Assembly: GCA_013425455.1 (NCBI GenBank)
Contig: JACCLI010000047.1
Coordinates: 1-39,238, forward strand
Direction: 5' to 3'
Length of the DNA stretch: 39,238 nt
DNA from: Candidatus Micrarchaeota archaeon
GTDB lineage: Archaea; Micrarchaeota; Micrarchaeia; Anstonellales; Bilamarchaeaceae
The notes beneath the pieces were generated by a model that did no database searches, was not told where the DNA came from, and worked only from the letters and a program-made list of their open reading frames with translations. Within the stretch, counting starts at the first letter, position 1; the number at the start of each line of letters is the position of its first letter. The translations under genes and the position numbers were made by a program. This document shows, one piece after another, positions 3,292 to 39,238 of this stretch.

Positions 3292-4358
3292 AGCGCCTGC
3301 TGCTGTTGCTGTTCCTGTTTTCACTCTCCTTTGCGGTTGATGAAACGCCGGAATGGATCCCGATAGCGCTTCTTGCTGTCATTGCCGGGCTCGGAGTCCT
3401 CATAATATTCTATCTTATCAGCTATGTTGTTGAGGCGGACCAGATGAGGGCCATGGCCATATCCGAGATGTGGCAGGTGGTCATCACTGGGGTGATGATA
3501 GCGGGGCTGATAGGGGCGCAGGCGCTCGCCACCGAGTTCGGGTCCGGGATGGCAAAGGATTTCGGGGCCGAGGACGGGGACACGCACATGGATTTTGCGA
3601 TAAAGGTGACGCAGGAGACTGTTGCTTACCAGTGGGCAACCCTCATGGACTTCACCAACAACATCGTAATTCCGATGGGCGACCTCGCGTCCCTTTCAGG
3701 CAACTGCTGGCTGTTCGGAGTCGCTTTCACCTATTCGGGATGCTCGAGCATAAACGTGCCCTTCTCGTCCGCATCGCTCGCTGCGAGGACGATGGCCATG
3801 GCGATACTGGCGCTGAATTCCCAGTTGGTGCTGCTCAACCTGGCAAGCAGGTTCTTCTTCCCGGTCCTTCTCCCGCTTGGCCTCTTCCTGCGGACCTTCC
3901 ACGTGACGAGGGGGACGGGGGGCGTCCTCATCGCCTTTGCGGTGGCTTTCTATTTCGTGTATCCGCTGGCGACCATCATAACGAAAGGGATGTCGGACGA
4001 GGTGCCCCTTTCCGCATTGGGCATCCATTATCCTGAACCACCAGCCATAAACCAGGTGGGTGCGGACGAGACGTGGGAGTTCAGCAACGTTTACACGTTC
4101 GAAGTTCCGGCGGAATGCGACCCATTCAAAACCTATGATTATGGGGATGGGGGCCAGGTTGAAGGATTCGGATATACGCAAACGCAGATAAACTATCTCC
4201 TGAACGAGAACATGCTGGACCCGCTGCTGTTCATTTTCATGATAAGTGGAATATTCAACCCCGCGCTTAGCATATTGATGGCGCTTGCGGTGCTGCGGCC
4301 TCTGACAAGAGTATTCGGGACCGAGGTGGACGTCTCAGCCCTCGGGAAGGTGTCCTAG
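3288..4358 (+). CDS. Polytopic membrane protein, CedA/VirB6-like paralog 3
   Basis: Start reassigned to ATG 3288, which gives an ATGA overlap and the signal peptide MKRLLLLLFLFSLSFA. Motif PLGLFLRTFHVTRGTGGVLIAFAVAFYFVYP; C-terminus VFGTEVDVSALGKVS. Confidence 0.8.
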   Translation: MKRLLLLLFLFSLSFAVDETPEWIPIALLAVIAGLGVLIIFYLISYVVEADQMRAMAISEMWQVVITGVMIAGLIGAQALATEFGSGMAKDFGAEDGDTHMDFAIKVTQETVAYQWATLMDFTNNIVIPMGDLASLSGNCWLFGVAFTYSGCSSINVPFSSASLAARTMAMAILALNSQLVLLNLASRFFFPVLLPLGLFLRTFHVTRGTGGVLIAFAVAFYFVYPLATIITKGMSDEVPLSALGIHYPEPPAINQVGADETWEFSNVYTFEVPAECDPFKTYDYGDGGQVEGFGYTQTQINYLLNENMLDPLLFIFMISGIFNPALSILMALAVLRPLTRVFGTEVDVSALGKVS

Positions 4359-5524: not shown

Positions 5525-6532
5525 ATGGCTGAAGAGGATTTGTTCCACTTTGCTTTTTCGGGATGGGGAGCGGGCGGACCCTGGTTCGTCAACTGCCTTC
5601 TCGCCATCATAGTCGTCGCGGTGATAATGGGCACCGTATACGCCATCTCATACGCATTCAATTTCATGAGCTTGAAGAGGTTCGCGGTTTCGGAGTTCTA
5701 CCAGCTCGCGGCCACGGCGGTTCTTGTGATTTTCCTGGTTGCAATCGTGGAGAACGGGCAGGCATTCTTCCTCTCCAAATATGGGGGGACGGTCATCTGC
5801 CAGGGAGGGGAGATAGACAACACGGTTCAGGCGGCCATGTGCCGCACCGAGGAGAGGCTAACGTATTTCGACAAGACGTTCAATTCCATAAAGGACAGCA
5901 GCGAGCTCGCGGATAAGGAGCTGCGTTACTACTCGTCGATGTCGCTTTTCGGCATAATATTCTGGCAGGGGAACTTCGACGCAAGCCTGCACAAATATGT
6001 GGAGACGCAGCACGCAATAGCCTCCAAGCTCGTCTCGCTCATGATTTCGCTGAACAGCCAGATGTTCGTGCTGAAATACATAAAGGAGAACATGCTCGTG
6101 TTCTTCCTTCCGCTCGGGATAGTGCTGAGGACTCTGCACTTCACGAGGGGAATCGGGGGCTTCTTCATAGCCCTTGCGGTGGCGCTGTATTTCATCTACC
6201 CGGGCATGCTCTTCATAATGGACGCGTCCTATGCGCCCCCTCCGCCGCAGGCGCCCTCTTCCATTTCCAACCGGGCGGACCTGTGCAACATACCTGTTTT
6301 TTCGGGAATGTCCCTGGGCGCCACCACCGCGGAGGGGCAGAGCACGAGGAGCGCCGCTTCCATATCAGTGAGCACCTCCAGCCTCGCGGCGTTCGTGTCG
6401 CAGGTGTTCGTAAAACTGTTCTATGACAACATGGTGGCGCTGGCGATTGCGGTGACGATGATGAGGTACGGGACCATGCTGCTGGGCGGGGACAGCAACG
6501 TTTTCCTGCAGATGATGGGGAGGTGGGTGTGA
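5525..6532 (+). CDS. Polytopic membrane protein, CedA/VirB6-like paralog 5
   Basis: 335 aa. Motifs TVYAISYAFNFMSLKRFAVSEF and PLGIVLRTLHFTRGIGGFFIALAVALYFIYP; C-terminus LLGGDSNVFLQMMGRWV. Confidence 0.8.
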   Translation: MAEEDLFHFAFSGWGAGGPWFVNCLLAIIVVAVIMGTVYAISYAFNFMSLKRFAVSEFYQLAATAVLVIFLVAIVENGQAFFLSKYGGTVICQGGEIDNTVQAAMCRTEERLTYFDKTFNSIKDSSELADKELRYYSSMSLFGIIFWQGNFDASLHKYVETQHAIASKLVSLMISLNSQMFVLKYIKENMLVFFLPLGIVLRTLHFTRGIGGFFIALAVALYFIYPGMLFIMDASYAPPPPQAPSSISNRADLCNIPVFSGMSLGATTAEGQSTRSAASISVSTSSLAAFVSQVFVKLFYDNMVALAIAVTMMRYGTMLLGGDSNVFLQMMGRWV

Positions 6533-9500
6533 TGAGGGGCATTTCTGTTGTTCTGGCTTTTGCTTTCGTGTTCGGGGCGCTCATGCTCGCGGGATGCGTG
6601 GCTCCGCAGCCATCGTTCAGCAACTGCTGCATGTACGACAACGCGAGCAATGATGAGCGATGCATAACTGCGGACAGGACGGAGTACGATGCGCACGGGT
6701 GCAACATGCTGAACATGACGTGCAACGTAACGCTCGGAGAGGGGGACGACACCGAGCTGCTCCCCATCTGCCCGAAATCCGAGCTTCTGAAATGCAACAG
6801 CAGCTGCGTGGGGATGTTCTGCGGCTCTTTTGAATTTGACCCGCGGCCGCCCATCTCCCTTGATGCGGAAGACATGAACGATTCCCGCGACACCGAGAAC
6901 GCCGACAAGGGCCAGTTCGGAGGGACGAGCAAGGGCGGGGCGAAGGGGCTTTATAACGGAGAGTGCCGGCTGCTCAACATGAGCCCGGCGACCCTGCGCG
7001 CCACCGGGAACACGAACGGGGGCTTCGCGCTCAACAGCTTCAGGTTCGGGGTCGGGGACTCCTTTGCGGAATTTGACGAGGCGAACATGTACTATCCGCT
7101 CACGGATTTCGCCTGCAAGATAAACCAGATGGGGACTATAGACAGGTATGCGAATTATGCGATACCGAATTCGCTAACAGAGGCGGGGACGAGGATTTGT
7201 GCGCCTTCCGGGGACAACAAATGGGTGTGCGTGCCGAGCACCAGCTACTCGGACGTTTTCTTTGAGACATATACATATTTTGACTGCGCCACCAAGTGCC
7301 TCCTGCAATTTTCCGGGGATTTCCCGGGCATAGACCCCAACAGCGCCTACCTCACGGAAAGGAACGGGCAGATGCTGGGGAACCCGTTCGCATACGGGGT
7401 TGCGGCGGATTCGCCCTGGGGAAATCTCATCAACGACAAGGACTACAAGAGCTCGGCTGAGGATACGGCATTTTATGATGGTTATCCCCTCGGGTACAAT
7501 TATTACGGGGCGGATTTCGAGAGGGACGACCGCGTGCTGGGCCCGAACAGGGGGGGCATCGAAGGGCTCCTCGCGGAGAAGGGAAGCGGTGAATTCGGGC
7601 TGCAGAGCGACGTGATGGACTATTATTCGGGCGAAACGGCGGACCTGCCCACCATGAGATGGGACCACCTGCTCGAGAACTTCATAACCGTGGAGAGGGA
7701 GCCGCACAGGATGTATGAATTCCTGCTCACCTACCATTCCGTTTATGCGGACCAGTTCCAGAACGGGCATTATGAAGATAATGGAACCTGGAAGAACGGG
7801 GCGGAGTTCGAATGCACCATGGAGGAGAACGGCTGCCTTTCAGGGTATTGCAACATATTCGATTATTCGCGCGGCGTATGCGTGAACATGGATAATTTAT
7901 CAAAGGACGCGAACTGCGACTGCGTGTATGATTATATTGAAGGGGGGGTGGCCTGCACCGGGAAGAAGCTGTTAAGCTCGCCTTCGTGGGACAGGTACAA
8001 CGACGCGACCTCGAACATAGAGGTGGCGACAACCCTTGCCGCTCCCATAGACCGCGTAGGGGATGGCCCCTACACCCACACATCCATGCCTTCCAAGGGA
8101 AGGACGGTGACGTTCAACCTTGATAGTACGGATTACATAAGCGGACTGGCGGAATCGGACAGGGACGACATAGACAGGTCCTTCCTCGTGATATTCCTTG
8201 GCGGGCAGAACGCCTTCCCGACATACACTGCCTACCAGCCACCCACTGATGACACCGCGGCCCTGTGGAACCAGACGCTCACGATTCCGCAGGTCCTTTC
8301 CCCGGAAAAATGGAGCGGCTGCAGCAGGTATTCGGACTGCGGAAAATTCTATACGACCTTCGTGGACCAGTGCGTGCCTACTTATGAGGAGGACCGGGAG
8401 TTCTACAGGACTAGCTTTGGCGTCTGCTATTCCGGCAGCCCTATGACGACCACTTCATCTTCGATTTTTGGGGGGCTGATTGAGACAAGGGTCCCCTATT
8501 CATACGGGCAGTACCTCAAGCCGGACGGGAGCATAGATGTGGAAAACTGGAACTGCCAGGGGCTCTTCAACTTCGACAAGAAGAAAGTGACTGGAAAGGG
8601 CGACCCTTCAAGGCAGGTCTATTGCTACGCGCGGGACAAGGACGGGAACTGCGAGGCATATTCCACCGCGGCGCTTATGATAAGGGGAAGGGATGTTGAG
8701 TATGAGGACGAGGATAGAAATCTGGTGGAGGGGCAGGCGTTCGGGAAATGCATCCTGGATGGGAGCGGCAACCTGCGCACCAAAACATACGGATATTGCG
8801 ACCAGTGCAGCTTCCTGACAATGGCGAAGGAGAAGGTGGTTGCCCTCCCGGAGAACAAGTTAGACCCGGGCTACCAGGCGTTGCGCGTGGATGGAAGCGC
8901 GCAGAGGAAGGACAATAAGTACTGCCCCTCGCTGATGATAAGCACCATTTATTCCCCGGATGCGGCCTTTGAAATAGAACGAGCCTCGTCTCCGCTTGGG
9001 GAGTGGGAGGGGCAGGGAGTGCACGCTTCGAGCGACGACCCGGAGGATTCGTATTACAGGAGCCAGTGCAGGATGCCGGATGGAAGCGAGGTGGGGATGG
9101 AGGAGGCATGGCCGGATTACCTTCCTAATGCGTATTATCTGAAAACAAAACTGAAGGACTACCTGCAAAGGAACATAATGCCGGTGCTGTTTGCGGATGA
9201 TGACGGATTGTACAGGGCACGCACCACGGACAGGGAGCCATACAAGGACAAGCCGGTGCTGCAGCTGGGCCTTAGCGACCATTTTGAAGCCGTCCAGGCG
9301 GGCACGACCACGAACCCATTGATTGCATCTCTCTGGAAGCGCAACCCCTCCATTTTTGACAAATACGGCCTGCCCGGGGACCAGCCATATGCATACACCG
9401 CACAGGGAACCTATCTTGCGGATTCGGTCATGAACCTCGGGGCCGGAATAATAGTTGTGAAGAACCTGAGCACCGACTTCGTGGAGGGCAGCGACATAGT

Positions 9501-10794
9501 GGCCGGGCTGGAGTGGAGGTCCGGTTCTGTGAGGCTCATGTGCCCGAACTGCATGGTAGCGGTCGCCGCCGGATACAGCGACGAGGGCTCCGGCCCCCAG
9601 ACAAGGATGCGGCTTGTCTCACGGCTCTTCGGATACGGAATTAGATACGGGGCCGGGACGCCGCTTTGGGATGACTATTCATACAACCTATCCTGCGCCA
9701 ACGGGGAGGTCGCGTGCATTTATGAGCGCCTGGATTATGTGGATGTGATTGCTGTGAAATGGGGGTTGGGCGGGCGCAATTCCCATTGTGACATCGAGGA
9801 CGAGCAGGAGAGGTTCGCGGCGATACTCGCGGACGAGATGGAATTCGGCTCCAAGATGCTGCGCAGGTTCGGCAAGCCGGTCGTGGTGACCGACCTCACC
9901 ATAACAAGGCACGAGGGCCTGATTTATGATGAAGGAGTGAGGGACTGCTGGAACGAAACGAGCGCCGCCAAATTTATGGAATACCTCGGCCAGCACACCG
10001 AGGACCTGATAAAGAGCGGGCACATCGGGATTATTTACGGGGACTGGACGTATGACCACTCGAGCGGCACCACCGGCCCCACATATGTAAGGACAAAGGA
10101 GAGCGCGGCTGGTGGATACGTGAGCGGATACAGGGGCTCGTTATATGAGGGGACCCTGCTTGCCTCGAGGGACTTCTCCGGGTATGGAGAGATGACCTCG
10201 CTCATGGAGATACCGGTCAAGGAGAACTGCACCTGCGTCCCCTGCACGTCCACCGACCCGGCGGAGATATGCAATGGAAAATTCGCGGGAAGCGGCGCCC
10301 TCTGCGAATGGGAGGGGGAGCGCGTGATGGTCAAGTGGCCGGACGACTGCATAACCGAAGATGCGTGCATGCCCGGGGAGCAGATGGCCGAATACATGAT
10401 GGACTGCGTGCTTGTGAGCGGAGGGCAGGAGACCGAATTCAGCGTGGACGGGGCGGAGGTCGTCGGGAATCCAGAATTGTACAAGCAGATGATCGCATCA
10501 ATAGAGAATACGGTGGACAGGCCGTGCTTCATGAACAAAACCTACGGCAAGACGCAGATCACAAGGTTCCTTTCCCATCCCCTTCTCTTCAGGAAGGACG
10601 GGAACATGAGCTATACCTGCAATCCGCTCTCCGTGGCGCAGGGGGCAATGTGCGGGCCGCTCCCGAGCTTGGACCTTGAGCAGATGAGATGCACCCTGAG
10701 GATAAAGACCGGATGGCTGACGCCCGGCGGGGTTCCGAGCCCCGGAGGGTTGCCGTCGCTGCCAAGCGGGCCTGGGGGGCCCATCGGAGGATAA
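6532..10794 (+). CDS. Very large Cys-rich, acidic surface lipoprotein, with a possible interrupted TIM-barrel/glycoside-hydrolase-like domain
   Basis: A GGAGGTG RBS and TGATG overlap give ATG 6532. Signal peptide with lipobox LMLAGC; many Cys; FGKPVVVTDL and IGIIYGDW strands; Pro/Gly-rich C-tail. Confidence 0.75.
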   Translation: MRGISVVLAFAFVFGALMLAGCVAPQPSFSNCCMYDNASNDERCITADRTEYDAHGCNMLNMTCNVTLGEGDDTELLPICPKSELLKCNSSCVGMFCGSFEFDPRPPISLDAEDMNDSRDTENADKGQFGGTSKGGAKGLYNGECRLLNMSPATLRATGNTNGGFALNSFRFGVGDSFAEFDEANMYYPLTDFACKINQMGTIDRYANYAIPNSLTEAGTRICAPSGDNKWVCVPSTSYSDVFFETYTYFDCATKCLLQFSGDFPGIDPNSAYLTERNGQMLGNPFAYGVAADSPWGNLINDKDYKSSAEDTAFYDGYPLGYNYYGADFERDDRVLGPNRGGIEGLLAEKGSGEFGLQSDVMDYYSGETADLPTMRWDHLLENFITVEREPHRMYEFLLTYHSVYADQFQNGHYEDNGTWKNGAEFECTMEENGCLSGYCNIFDYSRGVCVNMDNLSKDANCDCVYDYIEGGVACTGKKLLSSPSWDRYNDATSNIEVATTLAAPIDRVGDGPYTHTSMPSKGRTVTFNLDSTDYISGLAESDRDDIDRSFLVIFLGGQNAFPTYTAYQPPTDDTAALWNQTLTIPQVLSPEKWSGCSRYSDCGKFYTTFVDQCVPTYEEDREFYRTSFGVCYSGSPMTTTSSSIFGGLIETRVPYSYGQYLKPDGSIDVENWNCQGLFNFDKKKVTGKGDPSRQVYCYARDKDGNCEAYSTAALMIRGRDVEYEDEDRNLVEGQAFGKCILDGSGNLRTKTYGYCDQCSFLTMAKEKVVALPENKLDPGYQALRVDGSAQRKDNKYCPSLMISTIYSPDAAFEIERASSPLGEWEGQGVHASSDDPEDSYYRSQCRMPDGSEVGMEEAWPDYLPNAYYLKTKLKDYLQRNIMPVLFADDDGLYRARTTDREPYKDKPVLQLGLSDHFEAVQAGTTTNPLIASLWKRNPSIFDKYGLPGDQPYAYTAQGTYLADSVMNLGAGIIVVKNLSTDFVEGSDIVAGLEWRSGSVRLMCPNCMVAVAAGYSDEGSGPQTRMRLVSRLFGYGIRYGAGTPLWDDYSYNLSCANGEVACIYERLDYVDVIAVKWGLGGRNSHCDIEDEQERFAAILADEMEFGSKMLRRFGKPVVVTDLTITRHEGLIYDEGVRDCWNETSAAKFMEYLGQHTEDLIKSGHIGIIYGDWTYDHSSGTTGPTYVRTKESAAGGYVSGYRGSLYEGTLLASRDFSGYGEMTSLMEIPVKENCTCVPCTSTDPAEICNGKFAGSGALCEWEGERVMVKWPDDCITEDACMPGEQMAEYMMDCVLVSGGQETEFSVDGAEVVGNPELYKQMIASIENTVDRPCFMNKTYGKTQITRFLSHPLLFRKDGNMSYTCNPLSVAQGAMCGPLPSLDLEQMRCTLRIKTGWLTPGGVPSPGGLPSLPSGPGGPIGG

Positions 10795-10796
10795 AA

Positions 10797-10802
10797 TTTA
10801 AA
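10797..10802 (+). promoter_or_regulatory. Putative archaeal TATA box for a leaderless transcript
   Basis: TTTAAA lies ~25 nt upstream of ATG 10827 in a 32-bp intergenic gap. Confidence 0.5.
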
Positions 10803-10826
10803 GGTGAGCATATCCATAAGAGACAT

Positions 10827-13800
10827 ATGCGGAAGGCTTTGCTGGCCGTGCTTTTTCTCATTCCAGTACTTTTTTCCATAGTCCCGGATTTGGGCGCAGG
10901 GGCTTATGGCGCTTCCGCGCCGGGCATCTCCAACTCACGGGTCCGCATCGACATAAGCGGGGTGCACCTCATAAATCCGCAGGACGTCTGCCCCTCCTGC
11001 AGCATATTCACAACACAGCCTTTCATGGCTCCCTCCATAAACGAGGAGGAGAAGACCGTTTCCGTGAGCATGGGCGTGATAAACGAGAGCGGAGTGACGG
11101 CGGTGGAGGGGGCGACCCTTTTTGCATATGTACAGAAGGCTGACGGGAGCAACTCAAAAAGATGCAGGATATACACCAATGCGAACGGGAGCGCGAAAAT
11201 AAGCTACAACCCGGTCGACTGCCAGGACGGGTGCACTGTCAAGTTTTTCTTCTGCTGCGCCAACCCCGTCGCGCTCGCCTGCGTGCTGGAGCCCTGCCTA
11301 GGCGAGCCCGTCACCGCGTATAGCGACGTCCCAGCATGCGGCAGTGATGGATACGGGGGAGGGGAATGGCCCTCCAACGCCACGGTGGGTGGGCAGGAGA
11401 TACAGCTATACCCGACCCTAGAAGAGGCGGCGATACCCCCGAGGGCAGTGCTGCCCGGATTTGAATACACTTTTACGCTATGCTTCCCTCTCCTCATGAT
11501 ATTCGGCTTCCTGGGTGCGGCGATGTACGCGTCGGGCAGGGACCCGTTCGCGATGTTTTCATTCTATACCCCAAGGTTCACGCGGGGCATGGAGAGGCCC
11601 ATACAGGGAAGGGGATACACCATCCCGGGCTCTTCAATAATCAATGTCGCGATGAAGGCGACGGATCTAGGGACAGGGAAAACCTCCGCAAATGAGATGT
11701 TCGTTAGTTCGATGGAACAGAGCCCGATGGTCGCAAAAACCAAGGGCGCAGCTGGTGAGTTGGGAGGAGCCAAAGGAACCGCAACTGAAAGAGCAGGTGC
11801 AGGAAGGGCTAGTGCAAGCCAGGAGGAGCTTACAAGCAGGACGTCCGCTGACCGGATGGTTGCCGGGGGTTCCGGCGCAGTCATCGGCCAGAGCATCGGG
11901 GTTTCCGAGAGCATGATGCGCCCCGGCGAGGCAGGCGTTGGCGTGGGAACCGCGCTCCTTGCGCTGCTCGGGATAATGCTGAGGTTCTCAAATGCTCCCT
12001 GGCTCACAGGAGGGCTTTCACAAAGATTGATTGGAATTGCCGATGCATGGCAGGCCGAAAGGGTCTCGGGCTATTTCCAAACGAATGCGGCGCCAATAGC
12101 AGGAAGCATGCACGTTCGGTTTGACTCGGAAGGGAATGTCAGCCAGCTCACATATGTAAGCCCGCAAACCGGTGAAACGGTGACGGTTGAGGGTGTCGAC
12201 AAATGCAGGGCATTCGTAGATTCGGTGAGGAACGGCCTTGCCGCGAATGCCCAGGCGGGCGATAATAATGCGATTGATGGCCTGAACCAGTTCAATGAAC
12301 GGGTTGCGAACCTCCAGCACCCTGTGACCGGGGCGCGGGCAATGCTGATTGCTGAGGGAAGCAGGGAGGGTGGCCCTACTGGGGAGGTTCTTGCTGCAAT
12401 GGCAACGCTTGCAGACCCGAGTTCTTCTCCTGACAAGAGGCGCCAGGCCCTTGAAACTATTGCCAATTCGGACCAGGTTTCTGGGGATGTAAAAATAGCG
12501 GCGTTCGTTGCCGCAAGCGACGGAATGAATTATCAGCAGTTTGCCGCTTTTGTTGGTGCGGAAGGTTCTTCTGCGGCCAGGATATTCGGGGAACTAACTT
12601 CAAATTCTGCGGCGCTAAATGAAAGGCTGGACGGGAAGATTGACGGGAACATGCTCGGCGCGATAGGCGCGGCTGCGGAGAGGCTCGAGCAATTAAATGC
12701 CGGCAGGAGGGAAGGCCAGGCGGACAGCCTCGGCATCGGAACTATTGTCGCAAACATGAGGAGCGATATGGGCGAATGCCGTGGGGGCCCGGAAGTGTTT
12801 GTTTTCAGGAGCGGAACGGAAGATTCAGCCGCCAGGATGGCTGCAATGGGCCTCTCCGGAGCCGCATTGGATATGCGCATAAGCCTTGACGCGTTGGGCC
12901 AACGCACCGCAGAAAACGGCGAGGTAACCGACGGAATCGGCCAACGCCTGATTCTCGGCCATTTGAGTGCTGATGCACGCGCTGAGGTGGAGGCTGCGAT
13001 GGACAGCGAGGGCAGGGTGGACATATCCAAGCTAAGCGGAAATGCGAGAGGAGAATTGGGCAGTGTGATAGAACAACAGGTGAGAGGGGCAATTGTCAGT
13101 GAATACAATGTCGCCTACTCGCAACAACAGGCGACGGATTTCAAGAATGGCAACTCGGGGGAGGCACTTACCCTGAGAGACTTCCAGGAGGCGCTTGGGA
13201 ACTATGCGGCGGCAACACAAAGCTCCTACGAGATCATGAATGCGCAGGTTATGGGCCCTGCAAGGGAGGAGGCGCTCGCACTAATAGAGAGGAATCCGAA
13301 TCCAGTGGACAACCTGGGCAGGCTCACCACGATGGTCCTGCCTGAACAACTGGCAGCAAATGATGTGAGGGCTGTCATGGAGAGGCGGGGGATAGACCCG
13401 GAACTGGCAAGCATCATGGTTGGGATAGCGGGGGCGCAGGCGCAAGTAGGCTTCATTAATGGCCGCTATGAGGAACGTCCTGATGGCCAGAGGGAGTACG
13501 TACCGGGCCTCAGCGAAAGGCTTGGATTGCTGGCCATGGGGCCTACGGAATCCTACGGGCAGAGGGCAGACAATGCATATGCCAGCCTTGCTGAGATAGA
13601 CCGGCAGGTGGCTGAATTCAACGGCGCCATACAGACGCTTGACAATCCAAATGCGAGCCCGGAGGAGAAGGAACACGCGAGAGGGGTGGTCGCTGGGGGT
13701 ATGGAGCCATTTTTGGAGTACAAACGGGCCGAAGCCTCGCAGATTCTCGAAAACCCGGAAGCAAGCCAAGCGGACAAGGAATGGGCAACAAGAATTATGG

Positions 13801-14951
13801 CTTTGGACCCCGCCACCGCATTCACTGATGAGGGGCAGCGGGGGACACTCTGGCAGGAATACAATGCCCATATGGGGGAGCAGAAGGACCAGCAAAGAGC
13901 GGAAATGGAATTTGGAAGAACTAGGGAAAGCATATTTGCATCGGGGCCGCCTCTGGGCCAGCCTTCTAACGAACAGGAGAGGATAGCGGCGCAGGAAAGG
14001 GAAGCCGCCCTCCGGCAGGCGGTCGAGCAGTATACAACCTCCGCTTATTCACAAGCTGAAACCAAGCCAGACTCCGGACAGATTATACAGTTTACCATAT
14101 ACGGGGATCCGAATGCCAGGGAGATGCTCGATGCAGCAAGGCCCAACCTTCCCGCCACGGTCCAGGCGCAGCTTGACACGTTCCTGTCTAATACCGCATC
14201 ACAAGAAGAAAAATCACGTGCCCTGGACGTGCTTGTGCCCGCCCTCGATAATTATTATAGATATGCCGAAAATTCTGCCGATGACCGGCTCACTGCAGCG
14301 GACCGCAGCGAAGCTCAATGGGCAGTACACACTCTTACGACTTCCGAGGACTCCTCCGCCCGCCAACAAGCCGCAGAAAGTCTCCGCGAACTGAGAGGAG
14401 TGTCAGGTGAGGCGCAGCCTGGAATAGACGCGCTGATTGCTACGGCAACCGTGCCGCCTTCGCAGTGGACAGACGAGCAAAGGGCGAATCTCGGAGCTGT
14501 GTTGCCCAAGGTCCAGGAAAGGCTGGATATATATTTCGACACCACTGGCTATGACAGGGCGATTTCAAATCCAGATGGAACGAGGCAGGGGCTCATAAAC
14601 GATTATGCGAACGACAGGCAAAGCGAACTGAATGCGACCCGGGATTGGGCACAACAGGCAGGCACCGCTGCAGCCAGAACAGAGTACGAAACCGCGCAGA
14701 TACAGGTATCCCTTCTGGGAAATGAAGCGATAGACCGCTTTTACCAAAACATGGATGCGAACAGGGAGATTGCGGAAAGGGCCGCAAGGAACGTCACGGA
14801 ACGCGGATCAGAGAGTGTCGGGGCAGAGATTGCGGGAAGAGGCGGCTGGAGCTCCGAATACCAGGCTGCCGACAGCGCGTTTGCAGCAAGAAGGGCTGAA
14901 GAAGAGAGGCGCCGCAGGGAGCAGGGAGGCAGCGAAGGGGGGCAGAGGTAA
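10827..14951 (+). CDS. Large membrane-anchored protein: Cys-rich exterior domain, TM segments and a ~1000-aa Ala/Glu/Gln/Arg-rich helical tail
   Basis: Start at MRKALLAVLF (signal peptide). TM segment FPLLMIFGFLGAAMYASGRDPF; second hydrophobic segment LLALLGIML; repeated (N/D)PxASxEEK-like motifs in the tail. Confidence 0.75.
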   Translation: MRKALLAVLFLIPVLFSIVPDLGAGAYGASAPGISNSRVRIDISGVHLINPQDVCPSCSIFTTQPFMAPSINEEEKTVSVSMGVINESGVTAVEGATLFAYVQKADGSNSKRCRIYTNANGSAKISYNPVDCQDGCTVKFFFCCANPVALACVLEPCLGEPVTAYSDVPACGSDGYGGGEWPSNATVGGQEIQLYPTLEEAAIPPRAVLPGFEYTFTLCFPLLMIFGFLGAAMYASGRDPFAMFSFYTPRFTRGMERPIQGRGYTIPGSSIINVAMKATDLGTGKTSANEMFVSSMEQSPMVAKTKGAAGELGGAKGTATERAGAGRASASQEELTSRTSADRMVAGGSGAVIGQSIGVSESMMRPGEAGVGVGTALLALLGIMLRFSNAPWLTGGLSQRLIGIADAWQAERVSGYFQTNAAPIAGSMHVRFDSEGNVSQLTYVSPQTGETVTVEGVDKCRAFVDSVRNGLAANAQAGDNNAIDGLNQFNERVANLQHPVTGARAMLIAEGSREGGPTGEVLAAMATLADPSSSPDKRRQALETIANSDQVSGDVKIAAFVAASDGMNYQQFAAFVGAEGSSAARIFGELTSNSAALNERLDGKIDGNMLGAIGAAAERLEQLNAGRREGQADSLGIGTIVANMRSDMGECRGGPEVFVFRSGTEDSAARMAAMGLSGAALDMRISLDALGQRTAENGEVTDGIGQRLILGHLSADARAEVEAAMDSEGRVDISKLSGNARGELGSVIEQQVRGAIVSEYNVAYSQQQATDFKNGNSGEALTLRDFQEALGNYAAATQSSYEIMNAQVMGPAREEALALIERNPNPVDNLGRLTTMVLPEQLAANDVRAVMERRGIDPELASIMVGIAGAQAQVGFINGRYEERPDGQREYVPGLSERLGLLAMGPTESYGQRADNAYASLAEIDRQVAEFNGAIQTLDNPNASPEEKEHARGVVAGGMEPFLEYKRAEASQILENPEASQADKEWATRIMALDPATAFTDEGQRGTLWQEYNAHMGEQKDQQRAEMEFGRTRESIFASGPPLGQPSNEQERIAAQEREAALRQAVEQYTTSAYSQAETKPDSGQIIQFTIYGDPNAREMLDAARPNLPATVQAQLDTFLSNTASQEEKSRALDVLVPALDNYYRYAENSADDRLTAADRSEAQWAVHTLTTSEDSSARQQAAESLRELRGVSGEAQPGIDALIATATVPPSQWTDEQRANLGAVLPKVQERLDIYFDTTGYDRAISNPDGTRQGLINDYANDRQSELNATRDWAQQAGTAAARTEYETAQIQVSLLGNEAIDRFYQNMDANREIAERAARNVTERGSESVGAEIAGRGGWSSEYQAADSAFAARRAEEERRRREQGGSEGGQR

Positions 14952-16337: not shown

Positions 16338-17801
16338 TTACTTCCAGAGCTTCAGCCTTCTCTTTGCCTCCTGCCAAAACATCTTTACGTATTGCAATCC
16401 CTGCCTGGCTTTCCCGGTAAGGAGGACCATCTTCCTCAAAAGGGAGCGCCTCGCCTTCATCGGAAGGAGCTTTCCCCCGTCCAGCTCGACGAAGGCGTCA
16501 TAGGAGACCTTCGCTGGGATTTCGCATCCGTTGCGGGAGAAAGAGCCCTTGCGGAGGACCTGCACGAATTCCGAAGATGTGAAGTCCTTCTTTGCGAAAA
16601 CCTCGCGGGCGCGCTCCTTGTTCTTCTCGTCAAAGTGGATTACGAGGCGGCCGTATGAGAGCGGGCTCGCCATCCTCCAGTAGAACGGAACTCCGGAGTA
16701 AACGTGCGTGTCGTGGTCAAAATAATTCCTCTTGCCGAATGTGTGGCGACAGTGGAGGGAGAACGCGTAGGTGATGTTGTTCTGCGTCATCTTCGCAGTG
16801 GTGCCGACGTACTTCGTAACGATGCCTCTGAAGAAATCCTCGGAAATTAGCCTGCCGGAAAATGAGACGGGGCTGTTGGAGAATGTCGGGTTGTATATGG
16901 CGACCATGTCTGCGTATTTCCTTATGAAATCGAAAAGCCACTGCAGGGACTCGCCGGCATCGAGTTCGTTTATGATGCCCATGCTGAGCACGCCCGCGCC
17001 CAGCTGCGTTTCCCCGTAGGGATGGGCGATGCCGAGGGCGAGCTCGTTCCTTGCGCGCATGTCGGATATCCTTCCCAGCAGCTTTTTCCGTTCCATCACG
17101 GGCGCCATCCCGGGGAATTCGCGGACCAGGCGGTCAACCATCATCCCGTAAAAGGAGGAAGCGGTCTCAAGGCTGCTGAAATAGATGTTCATGTGGGGGC
17201 CGTTCGAGCTGTCCGGGTTCCTGTGCGGGAGGGTGAGCTCTATGGAAGGGACTTTCAGGATTCCGCATCTTCTCTCCAGCTCCGCAATCTCGCGGATGTG
17301 TTTGGGGATTACGTGGTTGTGGTATCCGGTGGCGTCTATGTCATAGTGCCAGAGGAGCATCTCGCGGATTATGTTTATCCTTGAGGATGCGCCGTCGTCC
17401 TTCCCTTCGTTCTCTCCCCAGTGGCCGTGCGGGACTACGAAGCGGGTGTTGGGGTCCTTCGCCTTCTGCACGTCCAGTACCTCGTCCTTCACCTTCTCCG
17501 CCCAGGCGTCGCTGACGCGGAACGAGGAGAAGCGGCGCATCAGCTCTCGCTTGGAAAGCGCCTTTCCGCCCTCCCCCTTGGAGGGGTCGGTGAAGAATAC
17601 CTTTGTCCTTCCGAAAAATGAGGTTTTTATGAACACGCAGAAATTGGAATCCGGGGAGTTCAGCCCGCGGTTGAGGATTATCTCCCCTTTTTTGCATAAT
17701 CGGGAGTCGTCTATTATGCCGAAGCCGAGGCCCTGAAGCTCATCAACGAGCTTCTGCCTCTTTTCAATCCCCCTCTGCTGGAGGGAGCGGAAGATTCCCA
17801 C
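16338..17801 (-). CDS. PHP-fold metal-dependent phosphoesterase-like protein with an N-terminal extension
   Basis: PHP metal-ligand motifs appear in order: PHGH, DDG, GYHNH, SIEL, GPHMNIY, IAHPY, DHDTH. Confidence 0.7.
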   Translation of the reverse strand: MGIFRSLQQRGIEKRQKLVDELQGLGFGIIDDSRLCKKGEIILNRGLNSPDSNFCVFIKTSFFGRTKVFFTDPSKGEGGKALSKRELMRRFSSFRVSDAWAEKVKDEVLDVQKAKDPNTRFVVPHGHWGENEGKDDGASSRINIIREMLLWHYDIDATGYHNHVIPKHIREIAELERRCGILKVPSIELTLPHRNPDSSNGPHMNIYFSSLETASSFYGMMVDRLVREFPGMAPVMERKKLLGRISDMRARNELALGIAHPYGETQLGAGVLSMGIINELDAGESLQWLFDFIRKYADMVAIYNPTFSNSPVSFSGRLISEDFFRGIVTKYVGTTAKMTQNNITYAFSLHCRHTFGKRNYFDHDTHVYSGVPFYWRMASPLSYGRLVIHFDEKNKERAREVFAKKDFTSSEFVQVLRKGSFSRNGCEIPAKVSYDAFVELDGGKLLPMKARRSLLRKMVLLTGKARQGLQYVKMFWQEAKRRLKLWK

Positions 17802-34052: not shown

Positions 34053-35312
34053 ATGCTGATTACCATAAACCTCTTGCCGAAAGGAAGTGCTCAGACCAAG
34101 GTGCGGGAGCCTTTGGTGGAAAAACCAAGGAAAAGGAGGGAAATCCCTGATTGGCTGAAGGTTACGCTAGTCAGGAACAGCTGCGACTCCATAAATTTCT
34201 GGAAGGTGGCGGAAGAGGCGGGCATGAGAACGCAGTTCCTGGAATTCGCGGAGATGCACTGCAACAGGGAAAGGGAGGAAAGGCTGGCTTACGGCGGCAG
34301 GCCGAACAAGCGGGTGAAGGGAATCATAGCGCAGGCATTCGAGGACATGATGGGAAAGGCAAGCAATGTGCAGATACTCGATTGGCTGGAGAAGGGATAC
34401 ATCTGCATATACCGCTACAAGTGGGGCAGGGAAAGCGTAAGGAAACTCGCGGTCATTGGGCTGGTGAATGCCCTGGGGAAAGATGTGCGCGAGACGACGC
34501 AGGACGACTTCAATGATAATGGGCTGGGCGGGCTGCTCACGAACTATTACAGAGGCTCGCCTTACGAAGCCTTGAAGGATGCGGGCTATCTCATTCACCC
34601 TTGGGAAATGAAAACAGCGCCGCACATCTATGAGAATAGGGACAACCGGGTTGCGGCCATACAATGGGTGGTTGAAAAAATGGGGGGAGACCCTAAGACC
34701 ATCACCTCCGACGATTTCCACGAGAACGGCCTTCGCGGCGTGATGCCTTATTACGAAACATTGTGGGATATGGTCTCTGATGCGGGTTATGATGTGAAGC
34801 CGTGGGAGATGGAAATGACTCCAACCTCCTTCTATGCAGAAAGGGAAAACAGAATCGCCAGGGTGAGGTGGCTGGTGGAGAAGCTTGGTAAAGAAGTGAC
34901 GGGAATAACGCAGGATGACTTCAACGCCAATGGGCTAGGCAGGCTATTGGAGGGTTACTACGGCAATTCTCCGCACAAAGCGCTTGTTGACTCCGGCTAT
35001 GATGTCAAGCCGTGGGAGATGGCGAGGGTTCCTTTTGGGACCTATGATGAGAAGAAAAATAGGGCGGATGCAGTAAAATGGCTTGTTGAAACGCTGGGAA
35101 AGAGGGCAAGGGACATTACTGTGGCCGATTTCTACAATAATGGATTCTCCGGATTGCTTAAGTATTATAATGACTCTCCTTATTCTGCGCTTCTTGAAGC
35201 CGGATTGGTTTCTGAGGCGGATGAAGAATATATGAGGTCAAAACAACACACGCATAAGGGGAAACAGGGAACTGAGATGCCTAGCCCTCCCTCTAAGGGA
35301 AGTGAGAATTAG
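34053..35312 (+). CDS. Helical-repeat protein with four ~70-aa units (DUF4046-like)
   Basis: Units of NR..A..WLVE.LGK...IT.DDF..NGL..LL..YY..SP..AL.DAGY.VKPWEM. Confidence 0.8.
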   Translation: MLITINLLPKGSAQTKVREPLVEKPRKRREIPDWLKVTLVRNSCDSINFWKVAEEAGMRTQFLEFAEMHCNREREERLAYGGRPNKRVKGIIAQAFEDMMGKASNVQILDWLEKGYICIYRYKWGRESVRKLAVIGLVNALGKDVRETTQDDFNDNGLGGLLTNYYRGSPYEALKDAGYLIHPWEMKTAPHIYENRDNRVAAIQWVVEKMGGDPKTITSDDFHENGLRGVMPYYETLWDMVSDAGYDVKPWEMEMTPTSFYAERENRIARVRWLVEKLGKEVTGITQDDFNANGLGRLLEGYYGNSPHKALVDSGYDVKPWEMARVPFGTYDEKKNRADAVKWLVETLGKRARDITVADFYNNGFSGLLKYYNDSPYSALLEAGLVSEADEEYMRSKQHTHKGKQGTEMPSPPSKGSEN

Positions 35313-35483: not shown

Positions 35484-35663
35484 ATGATAGAGATTAATCA
35501 CGATAGGTGCATACAGTGCGTGGGATGCGCGTCCGTGTGCCCCGTGCTCGCAATAGAGCTGGTGGGGCTGAGGATGAAGACCTATCCGGAGAAGTGCATA
35601 AGCTGCAAGGCTTGTGTGAGGGTTTGCCCGGCGGATTGCATTAAACTAATAGAAAAGAAGTGA
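35484..35663 (+). CDS. 2x[4Fe-4S] ferredoxin, probable GGR electron donor
   Basis: CIQCVGCASVCP and CISCKACVRVCP. AGGAG RBS. GTGA overlap with the reductase. Confidence 0.93.
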   Translation: MIEINHDRCIQCVGCASVCPVLAIELVGLRMKTYPEKCISCKACVRVCPADCIKLIEKK

Positions 35664-36883
35664 ATCCTATGGATTACGATTATGATATCATAATAATAGG
35701 GGGAGGACCCGCGGGGGCTTCCATGGCGAGGATTGCCGCCCAGAACGGAATGAGCGTAATGATTTATGATAAAAGGAAGGAATTGGGCGAGCCGGTGAGG
35801 TGCGGGGAGGGGCTCGGGCAGAGGGAGGTGCTCGCGCAGGGGATAGATTTGCCGAGATGGTGCTTCTCAACGGAAATCCACGGGGCGAAGGTGATTGCGC
35901 CCAATGGGAAGAGCATAACCTGGAAGAGCAAGGATACGAAGGGATGGGTGCTCGAACGAAAAATGTTTGACAAGTGGCTAGTGGAGCTGGCCGTGGAGAA
36001 GGGCGCGAAGGTGAAGACTTATGCCAGGGTTACGGATTTGGTGAAGAAGGACGGGAAAATAGATGGAGTGATGGTCTCGCAATGGGGCAAGGAGCCGTTT
36101 GAGGTCCGGGCGCCACTGGTGGTTTCGGCGGAGGGGATGGAGGCAATCGTTGCCCGTAAGGCGGGGCTGAAGGCCATGTCCACGCTCTATGATGTGGATA
36201 CGTGCTACCAGTATGAGATGAAGCCCTACGACCATGAGAATCTGATAGAACTCTATTTTGGGAACAAGATTGCACCGAGGGGGTACGTATGGATATTCCC
36301 GAAGGACGCGAAGAAGGCGAATGTGGGAATAGGGATAGGCGCGCACCTCACGAACTGGAAAAAAGGAGGGAACGTGGATGGGGCGGACCCCAAAATCCTT
36401 ATGGACAGGTTCATAGAGAACCATCCCCAATTGAAGGATTCCAGCGTATTGCAGGACTTCGGGGGGGTTATTTCGGTCGGGGCGCCGATAGAGTCATTCG
36501 TGAAGGACGGGTTCATGTGCATCGGGACCGCGGCGAAGCAGGTGGACCCCATACACGGGGGCGGGATTGCGCTTGCGATGGAGACGGGCATACTGGCTGC
36601 GGCGATTGCGAAGAAGGCGCATGGGAAGAAGGATTACTCGGAAAAGGCGCTGAAGGAGTATGAGAGCATATGGAGGGCCGGGCCGGGGAAGAAGATGGCG
36701 AAGAGGCTGCTCTTAAGGAAAGTGATGGAGGAAGTGAACGATGATGATTTGAACCATATCTTCAATACCATTACGGATGCGGATTTGCAGAAGGTAATGG
36801 AGGGGAGCTTTGCCGGGCCTGTGGCGAAAGTGGTTGGCGGAAGGCCGCAATTATTGCGTATTCTGAAGGCTCTGATTAGCTAA
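35660..36883 (+). CDS. Geranylgeranyl reductase / digeranylgeranylglycerophospholipid reductase
   Basis: IIGGGPAG, RCGEG, GYVWIFPK, ANVGIG, DPIHGGGI. Confidence 0.92.
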   Translation: MNPMDYDYDIIIIGGGPAGASMARIAAQNGMSVMIYDKRKELGEPVRCGEGLGQREVLAQGIDLPRWCFSTEIHGAKVIAPNGKSITWKSKDTKGWVLERKMFDKWLVELAVEKGAKVKTYARVTDLVKKDGKIDGVMVSQWGKEPFEVRAPLVVSAEGMEAIVARKAGLKAMSTLYDVDTCYQYEMKPYDHENLIELYFGNKIAPRGYVWIFPKDAKKANVGIGIGAHLTNWKKGGNVDGADPKILMDRFIENHPQLKDSSVLQDFGGVISVGAPIESFVKDGFMCIGTAAKQVDPIHGGGIALAMETGILAAAIAKKAHGKKDYSEKALKEYESIWRAGPGKKMAKRLLLRKVMEEVNDDDLNHIFNTITDADLQKVMEGSFAGPVAKVVGGRPQLLRILKALIS

Positions 36884-38229
36884 ATTATCGGGCGGAAGGA
36901 AAGCTCGCCGTTCTTTGCGATGGGCATGGCTGCCCCGTTCTTTCCTGCCAGTTTTACGAAGTACATCGCCATGTCGGCAAGGTCTATCATGAGCTGGCAC
37001 CAGTCCTTTGCATATTCCAAAAGCTGGCCGTCCACCTTGTCCGGGAGCTTCTTCTGCCTACGGATGCGCTTGAGGTCCGCATCGCATTTCTCCCTCATCT
37101 CCTTCATACGCTCTATGCGCTCCACGACCCTTTTCATTATCTCCTGCTTGAAATCCACGGGAAAGCGCCTCACCTCGCGGAGCTCCTGCCAGATGGATGA
37201 GCCAACCACGCCGACGCTGGTGCGTATCCCGAGTGGACCGGACTCTGTCTGACAAACCATTGGGTCGAAGAGGCTGTGGAGGTATGTGCCGTGCCGTTCG
37301 ATGTCCTGGATGGTTGCGACGCCTGGGTTGAGGAGGAAGAATTCCTCGCCCCCGTACCTGGAGGCGAAGCCGCCCGCCTCGGAGCGGAGCCTGGAGCCAA
37401 GTATGCCCATCACCTCGTCAGCGGTGCCATGCCCGTAAGTGTCGTTGAATTCTTTGAAGTCGTCTATGTCGATCATGGACGCCGCGAAGCGCCTTTTTCT
37501 CACTATGCTGGCGATGGCCATCTTAAGGAGCACCTCGTTGAGGAACCGCCTGTTCCAGAGGTTTGTGAGCGGGTCTATGTTCTTGATTTCCTCGTCGCGC
37601 TGGGTATAGAGCTCCTGCCAGATGAGGCGGGCCATTCCAACAAGATAGTCCAGCTGTTCGTTGTCCCTGCTCCCCGAAGGGTTCACGAAGCCCTCCACCG
37701 CGACCATGTGGGTGACATCCATGTGGCCCCTGGACATGTTTCCGAGGGGTATCCAGCAGCCGCAGTTGCCGAATGAGGTGGTCAGGCTTTCCTCCCGCAT
37801 GTTGAAGTCGTCCGGGTCGGAGGTAAATAAGGATATCTTGTCCCCGTTGAAAATTACGGTCTGGCCGCCCAGTATCTTGCCTATGCGGGGGTCCGTGCGC
37901 ATCATGAACTCCCTCTGCTCGCTTCCGATGGGGGTGCCGCCCACCCGCGACATCAGGCGGAGGCCGTCGTCCTTCGCCTCCCAGAGCTCCACCTTGGAGA
38001 GGTTCGGGTCGGTGGTGAGAATCTCCTTCATTATGAAGTTGCGCCGGTTGTGCCTGTGCCCCACCATGTGGAGCCTGCGTACGACTGAGCTCTGGGAGCG
38101 GAAAAAGGATGTTTGGGGGTCCTTCAGGCCGAATTCCTTGGGGGCTGGCGGAGGCTGGGATGCCCTTGTATCCTGGCAACCCGGGCTGGGTGGAGCTGAA
38201 AGTCTGGATTTATCATTCATACTATTCAA
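36880..38229 (-). CDS. GAF-like plus GGDEF (GGEEF) diguanylate-cyclase-domain protein
   Basis: DPLTNLWNRR, MIDIDDFKEFNDTYGHGTAD, RYGGEEF, TSVGV, ADMAMYFVKLAGKN. Confidence 0.9.
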   Translation of the reverse strand: MNSMNDKSRLSAPPSPGCQDTRASQPPPAPKEFGLKDPQTSFFRSQSSVVRRLHMVGHRHNRRNFIMKEILTTDPNLSKVELWEAKDDGLRLMSRVGGTPIGSEQREFMMRTDPRIGKILGGQTVIFNGDKISLFTSDPDDFNMREESLTTSFGNCGCWIPLGNMSRGHMDVTHMVAVEGFVNPSGSRDNEQLDYLVGMARLIWQELYTQRDEEIKNIDPLTNLWNRRFLNEVLLKMAIASIVRKRRFAASMIDIDDFKEFNDTYGHGTADEVMGILGSRLRSEAGGFASRYGGEEFFLLNPGVATIQDIERHGTYLHSLFDPMVCQTESGPLGIRTSVGVVGSSIWQELREVRRFPVDFKQEIMKRVVERIERMKEMREKCDADLKRIRRQKKLPDKVDGQLLEYAKDWCQLMIDLADMAMYFVKLAGKNGAAMPIAKNGELSFRPII

Positions 38230-38305
38230 CCAACTATAACTACTAATTAATGCACCACATCTGTTTTTATTTGTTTCCCTACTTCCATAGGGGCAGGTGG
38301 AACAA

Positions 38306-38398
38306 ATGTTCGCTTTCGATGAAGACGAGGACTGGGAGGACGAGGACTTCGACGACGAGGAATGGGGAGAGGACGGAGAAGAGGAGGAAGAGGGCTAG
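38306..38398 (+). CDS. 30-aa hyper-acidic microprotein MFAFDEDEDWEDEDFDDEEWGEDGEEEEEG
   Basis: AGGTGG RBS, ATG 38306, TAG 38396-38398, and a downstream hairpin plus T-tract. Below the ORF-track length cutoff. Confidence 0.65.
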   Translation: MFAFDEDEDWEDEDFDDEEWGEDGEEEEEG

Positions 38399-38423
38399 TC
38401 TTTCCCTTGCGTTTTTTCTTGTA

Positions 38424-38448
38424 GCCCGCTCTTGCGGGCCCTGTTTTT
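38424..38448 (+). terminator. Hairpin plus T-tract, putative terminator
   Basis: GCCCGC-TCTT-GCGGGC followed by CCTGTTTTT. A T-rich stretch also lies just upstream. Confidence 0.5.
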
Positions 38449-38510
38449 CACTTTCCGGAGAGGGAATAGTGTTAAAAATTTACGGGAATAATGTTCTCTA
38501 AGGTGTTCTA

Positions 38511-38972
38511 ATGGGAATTATGGACTACTTCCTGGGTGGAAAGAGAGAGGAGCCGAGAAAGGCTGCGTCTGGTGCGCCTATGGCCACGAAGCCGGTGGAG
38601 AAGCCGTTTGCGATATCCACAAAATTCAGCGCACTGAGGCTCAGGACCGGGAGGAACAGCAAGATATTCATAGAGGTGAACGTGAAGAACATAAGCCCCA
38701 CGAAGCAGCTGGTTTCCGTGGATTTGGGGCTTCCCCTGAACTCCAAGATAGGGTTCGACGTGAACTGCAACCAGAACTATATCGAGAAGAGATTGGGGGA
38801 GATCGCCCCGGGGGCGGCTGCGGACTTCACCGTCCCGATTTATGCCTCAAGCCTTACGAAGGAGGGGAGCTACACCGTGGAGATAAATGCATTCTCGCAC
38901 TATATAGATTACAAAAAGGTATTGTCCCAGATGAAGAAGAAGGTTGCGCTGAGGGCAGTCTCCGGGGCTTAG
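38511..38972 (+). CDS. Small beta-sandwich (Ig-like) protein; probable paralog of 25904-26257
   Basis: IEVNVKN, DLGLP, RLGEIAPG, VPIYA...T.EGSY.VEI, VALR. AGGTG RBS. Confidence 0.7.
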   Translation: MGIMDYFLGGKREEPRKAASGAPMATKPVEKPFAISTKFSALRLRTGRNSKIFIEVNVKNISPTKQLVSVDLGLPLNSKIGFDVNCNQNYIEKRLGEIAPGAAADFTVPIYASSLTKEGSYTVEINAFSHYIDYKKVLSQMKKKVALRAVSGA

Positions 38973-39238
38973 CCGAGGAGGGCGGAGAGCGCCCCCTTAA
39001 CATTTTCCATATAACCTGGGGCGGAAAAGGGCTCGCCGTGCCCGGGGAAGAATTTTTCTATTTTTAATTTGGAGAGCCTCTCATAAGATTGCAGAAGCTG
39101 GAACGGGTCGCTCCTTGGGAGGGAGAGGTTGGGGAGCATCAGGTCCGGGAATACTGTGTCCCCGGAGAATAAATATTTCTTTTCCTTAAGATAGATGCAG
39201 ATTGCGCCGGGGCAGTGGCCGGGCGTATGGAGGATGCG
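38969..39238 (-). CDS. Metallo-beta-lactamase-fold hydrolase (partial, C-terminal part)
   Basis: The reverse strand reads RILHTPGHCPGAIC...LFSGDTVF...FFPGHG...ALLG*. Confidence 0.88.
   Translation of the reverse strand, partial: RILHTPGHCPGAICIYLKEKKYLFSGDTVFPDLMLPNLSLPRSDPFQLLQSYERLSKLKIEKFFPGHGEPFSAPGYMENVKGALSALLG

Follow-up and report, generated by a model that had tools for sequence, protein, structure and literature searches.

A probable GAF-fold-controlled GGDEF cyclase resident in a freshwater-sediment genus of Micrarchaeota

The window analysed here (39,238 nucleotides) is one whole contig, JACCLI010000047.1, of the 986-kb, 87-contig genome of a Candidatus Micrarchaeota archaeon (GCA_013425455.1; 85.8% complete, 0.2% contamination), and the gene in question is a minus-strand gene towards its end whose product joins a GAF-fold sensor to a GGDEF domain, as in enzymes making cyclic di-GMP (c-di-GMP). 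It is the one GGDEF gene found in this genome and is called the cyclase below. The frame at 36880..38229 is open on the minus strand, as the preliminary description of this DNA had stated, and gives 449 aa from a TTG within a 504-aa open frame; the start proposed there was not retained, as the TTG at 38229 adds three residues and the public gene calls (P0001, P0125) begin at the ATG at 38220, yielding 446 aa. Residues are numbered here from this ATG, that is, three lower than from the TTG. The protein consists, in order, of a disordered Pro-rich leader, a GAF-fold sensor, a linker helix and a GGDEF domain with a helical hairpin placed before its last helix, and no signal peptide or membrane segment was seen by eye in its sequence. 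Its features and its convergent neighbour are the following:

36880..38220, minus strand: GAF-GGDEF protein, whole coding sequence (446 aa, ATG at 38220, stop TAG at 36880-36882)
38068..38220, minus strand: N-terminal leader, residues 1-51, of which 1-35 are Pro-rich and predicted disordered, followed by a helix into the sensor
37606..38067, minus strand: GAF-fold sensor, residues 52-205, of a sequence type found only in this genus
37579..37659, minus strand: linker helices, residues 188-214 (model helices 188-205 and 209-214), from the sensor to the DxLT start
37195..37578, minus strand: first part of the GGDEF domain, residues 215-342, with the DxLT, NxR, DxD..K..ND..GH...D and RYGGEEF motifs
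37369..37380, minus strand: EAGG at the place of the RxxD inhibitory site, residues 281-284, aligning with RSSD of WspR
37339..37353, minus strand: GGEEF active-site motif, residues 290-294
36991..37194, minus strand: charged helical hairpin insertion, residues 343-410, conserved
36883..36990, minus strand: last helix of the GGDEF domain (ADxAMYxVKxxGKN) and terminal beta hairpin, residues 411-446
35660..36883, plus strand: geranylgeranyl reductase (GGR) family gene, convergent, its stop overlapping that of the cyclase

The C-terminal part of the protein matches Pfam GGDEF (PF00990; E 2.3e-22, 79.9 bits against a cut-off of 23.8) in one stretch covering profile positions 2-130 of 161, and also TIGR00254 (E 9.2e-24, 84 bits against a cut-off of 37.4). 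Searching PDB sequences with phmmer retrieved 29 cyclases at E<=1e-8, the best being the LOV-regulated cyclase 8c05 (3.9e-17), and the GGDEF (palm-like) fold is recovered by Foldseek in 111 PDB matches at E<=0.001; among the matches listed, all are GGDEF-domain proteins, with 3tvk at a TM of 0.87 normalised to the target. These alignments and profile matches confirm the full set of canonical GGDEF motifs that had been read from the DNA alone: DPLT at 216-219 with N223 and R225; D251-I-D253-x-F-K256-x-x-N259-D260-x-x-G-H264-x-x-x-D268; R288-Y followed by GGEEF at 290-294, so that the GG[D/E]EF loop is preceded by an arginine (R288-Y-G-G-E-E-F); and ADxAMYxVK423xxGK427N. The motifs are invariant or nearly so across 12 family members (GGEE residues in 12/12), and Asp268, Asn259 and the entire GGEEF set are kept in the cyclase and its nine closest relatives. 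The metal-binding aspartate, the guanine-reading asparagine and aspartate and the last-helix lysine are present as D251, N259, D268 and K423, whose counterparts in PleD we take to be D327, N335, D344 and K442. Indeed, PleD (1w25/2v0n) and WspR (3bre, 3i5b), which match the core in HMMER at 1e-11 to 1e-13, share with the archaeal protein the magnesium-binding aspartate, the guanine-binding asparagine and aspartate, the Arg-x-GGEEF loop and the lysine of the last helix. Judging from these residues, the cyclase looks catalytically competent.

In contrast to PleD and WspR, which are regulated by receiver domains and product-inhibited via RxxD, the archaeal cyclase carries EAGG at the corresponding place and reaches its last helix only after the insertion. 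When RxxD was sought five residues before GG[D/E]EF, excluding six rows that lack an uninterrupted GG[DE]E, it was present in 0/19 family rows as against 12/34 rows from other Micrarchaeota and 100/109 nearest bacterial hits. The replacement of RxxD by EAGG, already pointed out in the preliminary description, is thus a property of the whole family, and the protein does not group with the product-inhibited (I-site) cyclases; without this site, product feedback would probably be absent. Calling the enzyme "unregulated", as had been suggested, is nevertheless an overstatement because a conserved GAF-fold sensor precedes the cyclase domain, and only product feedback through RxxD is missing.

The identity of this sensor comes from its predicted structure rather than from sequence profiles. 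None of the Pfam GAF families (PF01590, PF13185, PF13492) matches it, and no family besides GGDEF matches the protein at E<=0.01. Modelled alone, the N-domain (pLDDT 84.7, pTM 0.83) aligns in VIA-align with the GAF chain 3eea_B at Z 13.7 (root-mean-square deviation 3.0, 132 aligned), and rows 1-31 of that search are all GAF or phytochrome-GAF chains. By Foldseek alone the match is marginal (best E 1.2e-3), and the structure rows of the ESM Atlas (TM 0.57-0.68) are mostly clusters carrying GAF domains. The GAF-like sensor of the preliminary description is therefore upheld at the level of the predicted fold, although it escapes the Pfam GAF profiles. The full AlphaFold model, built from a 12-row alignment (mean pLDDT 80.5), shows helices at 35-52 and 56-70, a beta sheet at 74-177 and helices at 188-205 and 209-214, followed by the GGDEF fold. 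Leader residues 1-35 have a pLDDT below 50, in keeping with the disorder ascribed earlier to this Pro-rich segment, and the second half of the leader (FRSQSSVVRRLH) is kept in alignments of close orthologs. Conserved polar residues of the N-domain (H55, R56, E78, W80, E81, R88, R103, D110, R112, T170 and H171) are compatible with a putative pocket for a small ligand.

The closest known counterpart of the whole protein is 4zmu (Dcsbis/PA2771 of Pseudomonas aeruginosa), ranked first by Foldseek over the full length (E 9e-12, 422 columns), in which a GAF-fold sensor, a linker helix and a GGDEF domain follow in the same order with the same catalytic motifs, and whose GAF domain aligns with the N-domain of the cyclase at Z 10.7. 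Nevertheless, the two share only 17-18% identity, and the archaeal protein, besides its archaeal host, differs in a GAF domain that Pfam does not recognise, in the lack of RxxD, and in the addition of a disordered Pro-rich leader and a 68-aa hairpin.

This hairpin is the second unusual trait of the protein. In HMMER alignments with solved cyclases, residues 412-434 pair with the last helix in a second stretch apart from the first, and an insertion of about 68 residues (343-410) therefore lies before it, in agreement with the charged helical insertion of about 60-70 aa that had been described. It is found in all family members with a length of 65-90 aa, and in the AlphaFold model, where it breaks the GGDEF fold, it comprises long helices at 359-387 and 398-425, the latter continuing into the canonical last helix. 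Searched alone against Pfam, the insertion gave no match over the cut-off; the sub-threshold BEX (0.029) and GapR (0.07) matches look like chance, and kinship with either was rejected. Our guess is that the hairpin is a family-specific addition that provides a dimer or partner contact. A homodimer prediction with two copies of residues 36-446 scored 0.01 against a mark of 0.42, a value that has no bearing on dimerisation.

As GGDEF domains are typically bacterial, it must be considered whether this gene belongs to the archaeon at all or whether it reflects bacterial contamination or a chimeric assembly. Such a doubt was indeed raised in a 2018 census about response regulators of bacterial type, including the REC-GGDEF protein of Micrarchaeum, in archaeal genomes that were not finished (Galperin et al., 2018, PMC5847659), and the GC content over the gene is slightly higher than nearby (0.587 versus about 0.50-0.55). 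Nevertheless, an ortholog occupies the same slot in all seven other genomes of the genus, in one case on a 1.03-Mb contig; GGR adjoins the cyclase in 5/5 genus loci reaching that side, and on the opposite side p153 and the MBL-fold gene lie beside it in 6/6 loci that extend so far. The N-domain family occurs in 8/8 genus genomes and in 0/53 other genomes of the order (61 searched). Against 1.84 billion cluster representatives, the N-domain gave five hits, namely its own cluster, three at 39-44% identity and one weak match of 52 residues, so that only three other close clusters exist elsewhere in that set. The window itself also encodes GGR, HMG-CoA reductase, a protein of the eRF1 family and one with the C-terminal domain of GMP synthase, and the close ortholog MCX6768716.1 is recorded as Candidatus Micrarchaeota. 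The overlap of the two stop codons that had been reported is plain in the sequence, with the TAA of GGR at 36881-36883 and the TAG of the cyclase at 36882-36880. Finally, run X1 is a freshwater sediment metagenome, possibly the sample from which the genome came, and its Logan contigs cover the region in tiles at an even depth (8.45-9.19); a 988-nt contig among them crosses the cyclase-GGR junction (36723-37710) with one differing letter, which answers the call for read coverage across position 36880; a 3837-nt contig of X2, from another study, covers 37803-39232 with 55 differences. Together with the conserved slot, the bridging contig and the even depth exclude a chimera as far as the data allow, and with a genome contamination of 0.2% the probability that the gene is foreign to the archaeon is practically negligible. 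These observations confirm that the cyclase gene is real and resident in a genuine Micrarchaeota chromosome.

Full-length relatives of the cyclase are few: nine share 60-89% identity with it and a tenth 42%, after which only generic GGDEF hits covering 19-50% of the query are retrieved. Searching genome contigs for related loci returned only bacterial loci, with the GGDEF core at 29-46% identity. In a quick tree of 166 rows and 171 columns (19 family rows, 110 nearest bacterial hits and 37 other Micrarchaeota, with one duplicate and two fragmentary rows removed), all 19 rows of the family group together as a single clade (SH-aLRT 99), and its stem is long (0.98). The support for the placement of this clade relative to the bacterial rows and the other Micrarchaeota is below 80 to 81, and therefore neither a bacterial donor nor a common origin within Micrarchaeota can be named. 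The GGDEF phylogeny proposed in the preliminary description thus delivers the family clade but not its sister group. Within the family, the distant members P0010, P0121, P0123, L028 and L029 share a conserved C-terminal tail, roughly SAPS...DPxQLSLPGxQNSHP, that the clade of the window does not have. Two genomes of the genus, G004 (L003, G004:C4) and G003 (L007, G003:C29), also have a second, short GGDEF-only gene (open frames of 232-243 aa), which was not found in the genome of the window.

Taken together, these results suggest that the gene probably encodes a resident cytoplasmic cyclase of this freshwater-sediment genus, which makes c-di-GMP under the control of its GAF-fold sensor. From the fold and motifs described above, we infer catalysis, the identity of the product, a dimeric working state, ligand control and a downstream pathway. 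The GAF-fold domain would bind a small ligand and, through the linker helix, control the GGDEF domain, which would condense two GTP into c-di-GMP as in bacterial GAF-GGDEF cyclases; the Mg-binding Asp, the GGEEF loop and the Asn and Asp that read guanine are all intact. The hairpin before the last helix may serve as the contact surface guessed at above, and the product would probably not feed back on the enzyme.

Several observations weigh against this reading and must be set beside it. An insertion of 68 aa might interfere with the fold or with the active dimer. Three deeper orthologs do not keep all the catalytic residues, as D268 is replaced by Asn in G004 (L029, G004:C13) and by Ser in G001 (L030, G001:C5, the protein P0123), and the arginine before GGEEF by Lys in the G002 ortholog (L033, G002:C88). 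The protein also evolves quickly: its dN relative to G007 is 0.69, about ten times the 0.067 of GGR. Finally, no EAL, HD-GYP (HD_5), PilZ or MshEN domain was found in its own genome (85.8% complete) or in the other seven genomes of the genus (0/8 in all), and it is odd that nothing visible removes or reads the messenger. None of the 23 sequencing runs listed was of RNA, which counts neither for nor against expression of the gene. As a side observation, the G001 ortholog further shows NDRITH and GGEEL.

The substitutions in some orthologs, together with the high amino-acid divergence within the genus (28-79% identity for the cyclase versus 88-91% for GGR), could indicate a decaying remnant, that is, a once-acquired gene drifting to loss. 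However, the frame is open in 8/8 genomes, the catalytic residues are invariant in the clade of the window, and dN/dS relative to G005 is 0.19 at an unsaturated dS of 0.65, with every part below 0.35 (leader 0.32, GAF 0.15, core 0.17, insertion 0.21); the neighbouring genes have values of 0.07-0.11. The low dN/dS combined with the high dN therefore shows that the cyclase is a selected but fast-evolving sensor, and we consider decay very improbable.

The search for EAL, HD-GYP, PilZ and MshEN domains that the preliminary description had called for therefore returned nothing, and neither a phosphodiesterase nor a known receptor of a complete c-di-GMP module was found in the genome. The c-di-GMP riboswitches RF01051 and RF01786 gave no match in it either, where the blank for RF01051 is uninformative because that profile found nothing in any control genome. 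Such an orphan state could mean that the domain, although able to bind GTP, does not synthesise c-di-GMP in vivo, acting instead as a non-catalytic scaffold for GTP or a partner or making another nucleotide (a mixed cyclic dinucleotide or linear pppGpG). Its fast protein evolution would fit this idea, as would the Ser at the guanine-Asp position of the G001 ortholog (P0123), recalling the signature linked to the cGAMP-making "Hypr" GGDEFs, which 0/20 selected proteins from metagenome-assembled genomes (MAGs) have (Sidorov et al., Sept 2026, PMC13725321). The same work also describes catalysis-independent phenotypes for some archaeal GGDEF proteins. Yet the preservation of Asp268, Asn259 and the GGEEF set in the closest relatives, as noted above, and the purifying selection on the GGDEF core in the close pair (dN/dS 0.17) argue against it, and we regard this explanation as unlikely.

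A further alternative is an active enzyme whose product serves a host or partner cell, or a shared biofilm, instead of a circuit within its own cell, which would explain at once the missing feedback site, phosphodiesterase and receptors. The orphan cyclase without RxxD is found across the genus, Micrarchaeota rely on contact with their host and on its biofilm (PMC8975820), and cyclase genes are 1.7-fold commoner in sediment-attached ultra-small MAGs (PMC9938205). Nevertheless, neither a membrane segment nor a secretion signal is visible in the protein, the gene has no linked transporter, and the missing domains may be archaeal families that are not recognised as such. We know of no c-di-GMP receptors in the archaeal hosts of cultured Micrarchaeota, and because of this and of the archaeal nature of the known hosts, the suggestion that the cyclase is aimed at a bacterial partner is without basis. 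That these hosts are archaea is documented in PMC8975820, the available part of which makes no mention of c-di-GMP. Export to a partner is accordingly rather improbable in our view, and a c-di-GMP-making cyclase controlled by its own sensor is the reading that we retain.

A similar scarcity of known partners is seen in the samples of the order and the phylum. In the order sample (61 genomes), GGDEF was found in 36 genomes, EAL in one, PilZ in one, MshEN in none and HD_5 in 14, of which 12 were over the cut-off; ten of these 12 were also GGDEF-positive, and none belonged to this genus. The motif HHExxDGxGYP was seen in two of the four HD_5 loci read, and the sole EAL (L005/L014, G009:C44) lies on a short contig in an 868-aa frame fused to a degenerate GGDEF (SGDKF). 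Among the 46 GGDEF open reading frames (ORFs) of the order covered by the motif check, the core catalytic set is kept in 39 (35/39 outside the genus). In the phylum sample, which includes one unpublished genome (G080), the GGDEF profile matches 129/301 genomes from 66/129 genera, with 113 genomes exceeding the cut-off, and HD_5 is found in 31/301, 20 of these being GGDEF-positive; 109 of the 129 GGDEF-positive genomes are without HD-GYP. All these counts are descriptive only, as related genomes are not independent. The GGDEF proteins of other Micrarchaeota genera (L002-L013, L035-L061) are mostly 350-480 aa long, with varied insertions in the GGDEF domain and an N-terminal half of about 200 aa without an assigned family. 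A tentative and rather doubtful idea is that c-di-GMP could be a second messenger across much of the Micrarchaeota, handled by archaeal families that are not recognised, and that the feedback-free sensor cyclase of this genus, with its new GAF variant and helical hairpin, could control host attachment or life in the host biofilm.

The view that c-di-GMP signalling is essentially bacterial, on which the preliminary description based the novelty of this gene, has been overtaken by the archaeal GGDEF proteins, mainly from DPANN MAGs, several of which acted as cyclases when assayed in Salmonella and E. coli (Sidorov et al., Sept 2026, PMC13725321). The novelty of an archaeal cyclase is thus largely lost, and the remaining interest of the present one is its genus-specific GAF variant, its hairpin insertion, its missing feedback site and the lack of recognisable partners. 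The proteins of that study likewise have an intact GGDEF on contigs flanked by archaeal genes and come mainly from DPANN, but this cyclase family is apparently not among them: in the available text, Micrarchaeota are unnamed in the main text, and the only Micrarchaeota match found in the supplement is MBI5036943.1, with an aberrant RIFHPSGDEF motif. The archaeal occurrence is called occasional there, in contrast to the 129/301 Micrarchaeota genomes matched here. The regulator of Micrarchaeum described by Galperin et al. (2018, PMC5847659) comes from the same phylum and has a GGDEF-fold domain, but that domain is inactivated and linked to a receiver, whereas the present cyclase combines an intact active site with a GAF-fold sensor. 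Occurrence, co-occurrence with EAL or HD-GYP, and receptors of archaeal GGDEF proteins are named as open questions in PMC13725321, and our census gives first numbers on them. The locus offers a clean, vertically kept and selected example in a genome of roughly 1 Mb, and hence a small search space for partners. If the enzyme is active, the genus would be a minimal system for finding archaeal c-di-GMP effectors and would allow a cyclase with a hairpin insertion and without product feedback to be tested.

Two plus-strand genes lie beyond the start of the cyclase:

38306..38398, plus strand: small acidic ORF (30 aa, 65% Asp/Glu), between the cyclase and p153, found only in this genus
38511..38972, plus strand: p153, conserved hypothetical, divergently oriented, present in most family genomes searched

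The gene p153 was found in 36/41 genomes of the family searched, usually beside an MBL-fold gene (loci L144-L172). In the other genera of the family, 27 p153 loci were compared: the gene immediately upstream is RTC or DUF92 in 11/27, and GGR or the cyclase in 0/27. A block of ferredoxin, GGR, cyclase and acidic ORF separating RTC from p153 is therefore peculiar to this genus. The leads for p153 in the Atlas are weak (0.85-0.86) and point to CARDB-like beta-sandwich proteins. It was considered as a hidden PilZ-like receptor and rejected, as its N-terminal RxxxR is not conserved in orthologs and it has no Pfam or PADLOC match. Similarly, a defence-system reading was discarded, with PADLOC returning 0 families for the cyclase, p153, the acidic ORF and p419.

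The acidic ORF, which contains two Trp and several Phe, is nearly identical in 6/7 of the genus genomes first checked, even where the identity of the cyclase is only 28-35%, and lies beside p153 in G003 too. It is absent from the 27 p153 loci of other genera (in a filtered search) and has no Pfam or PADLOC match. The summed contig depth is raised over it because such acidic low-complexity sequence is common to other organisms.

Elsewhere in the window, two overlapping giant ORFs on the plus strand (6523-10794 and 10689-14951; 1423 and 1420 aa) and the long ORFs 1006-3291, 3045-4358 and 16338-17801 match no Pfam family at E<=1e-5. The p419 gene (34053-35312, plus strand), without a Pfam or PADLOC family, contains about four internal repeats of about 75 aa with the pattern DDF..NGL...YY..SPY.AL.DAGY...PWEM, and some genomes of the genus, but not all, have it upstream of the ferredoxin gene.

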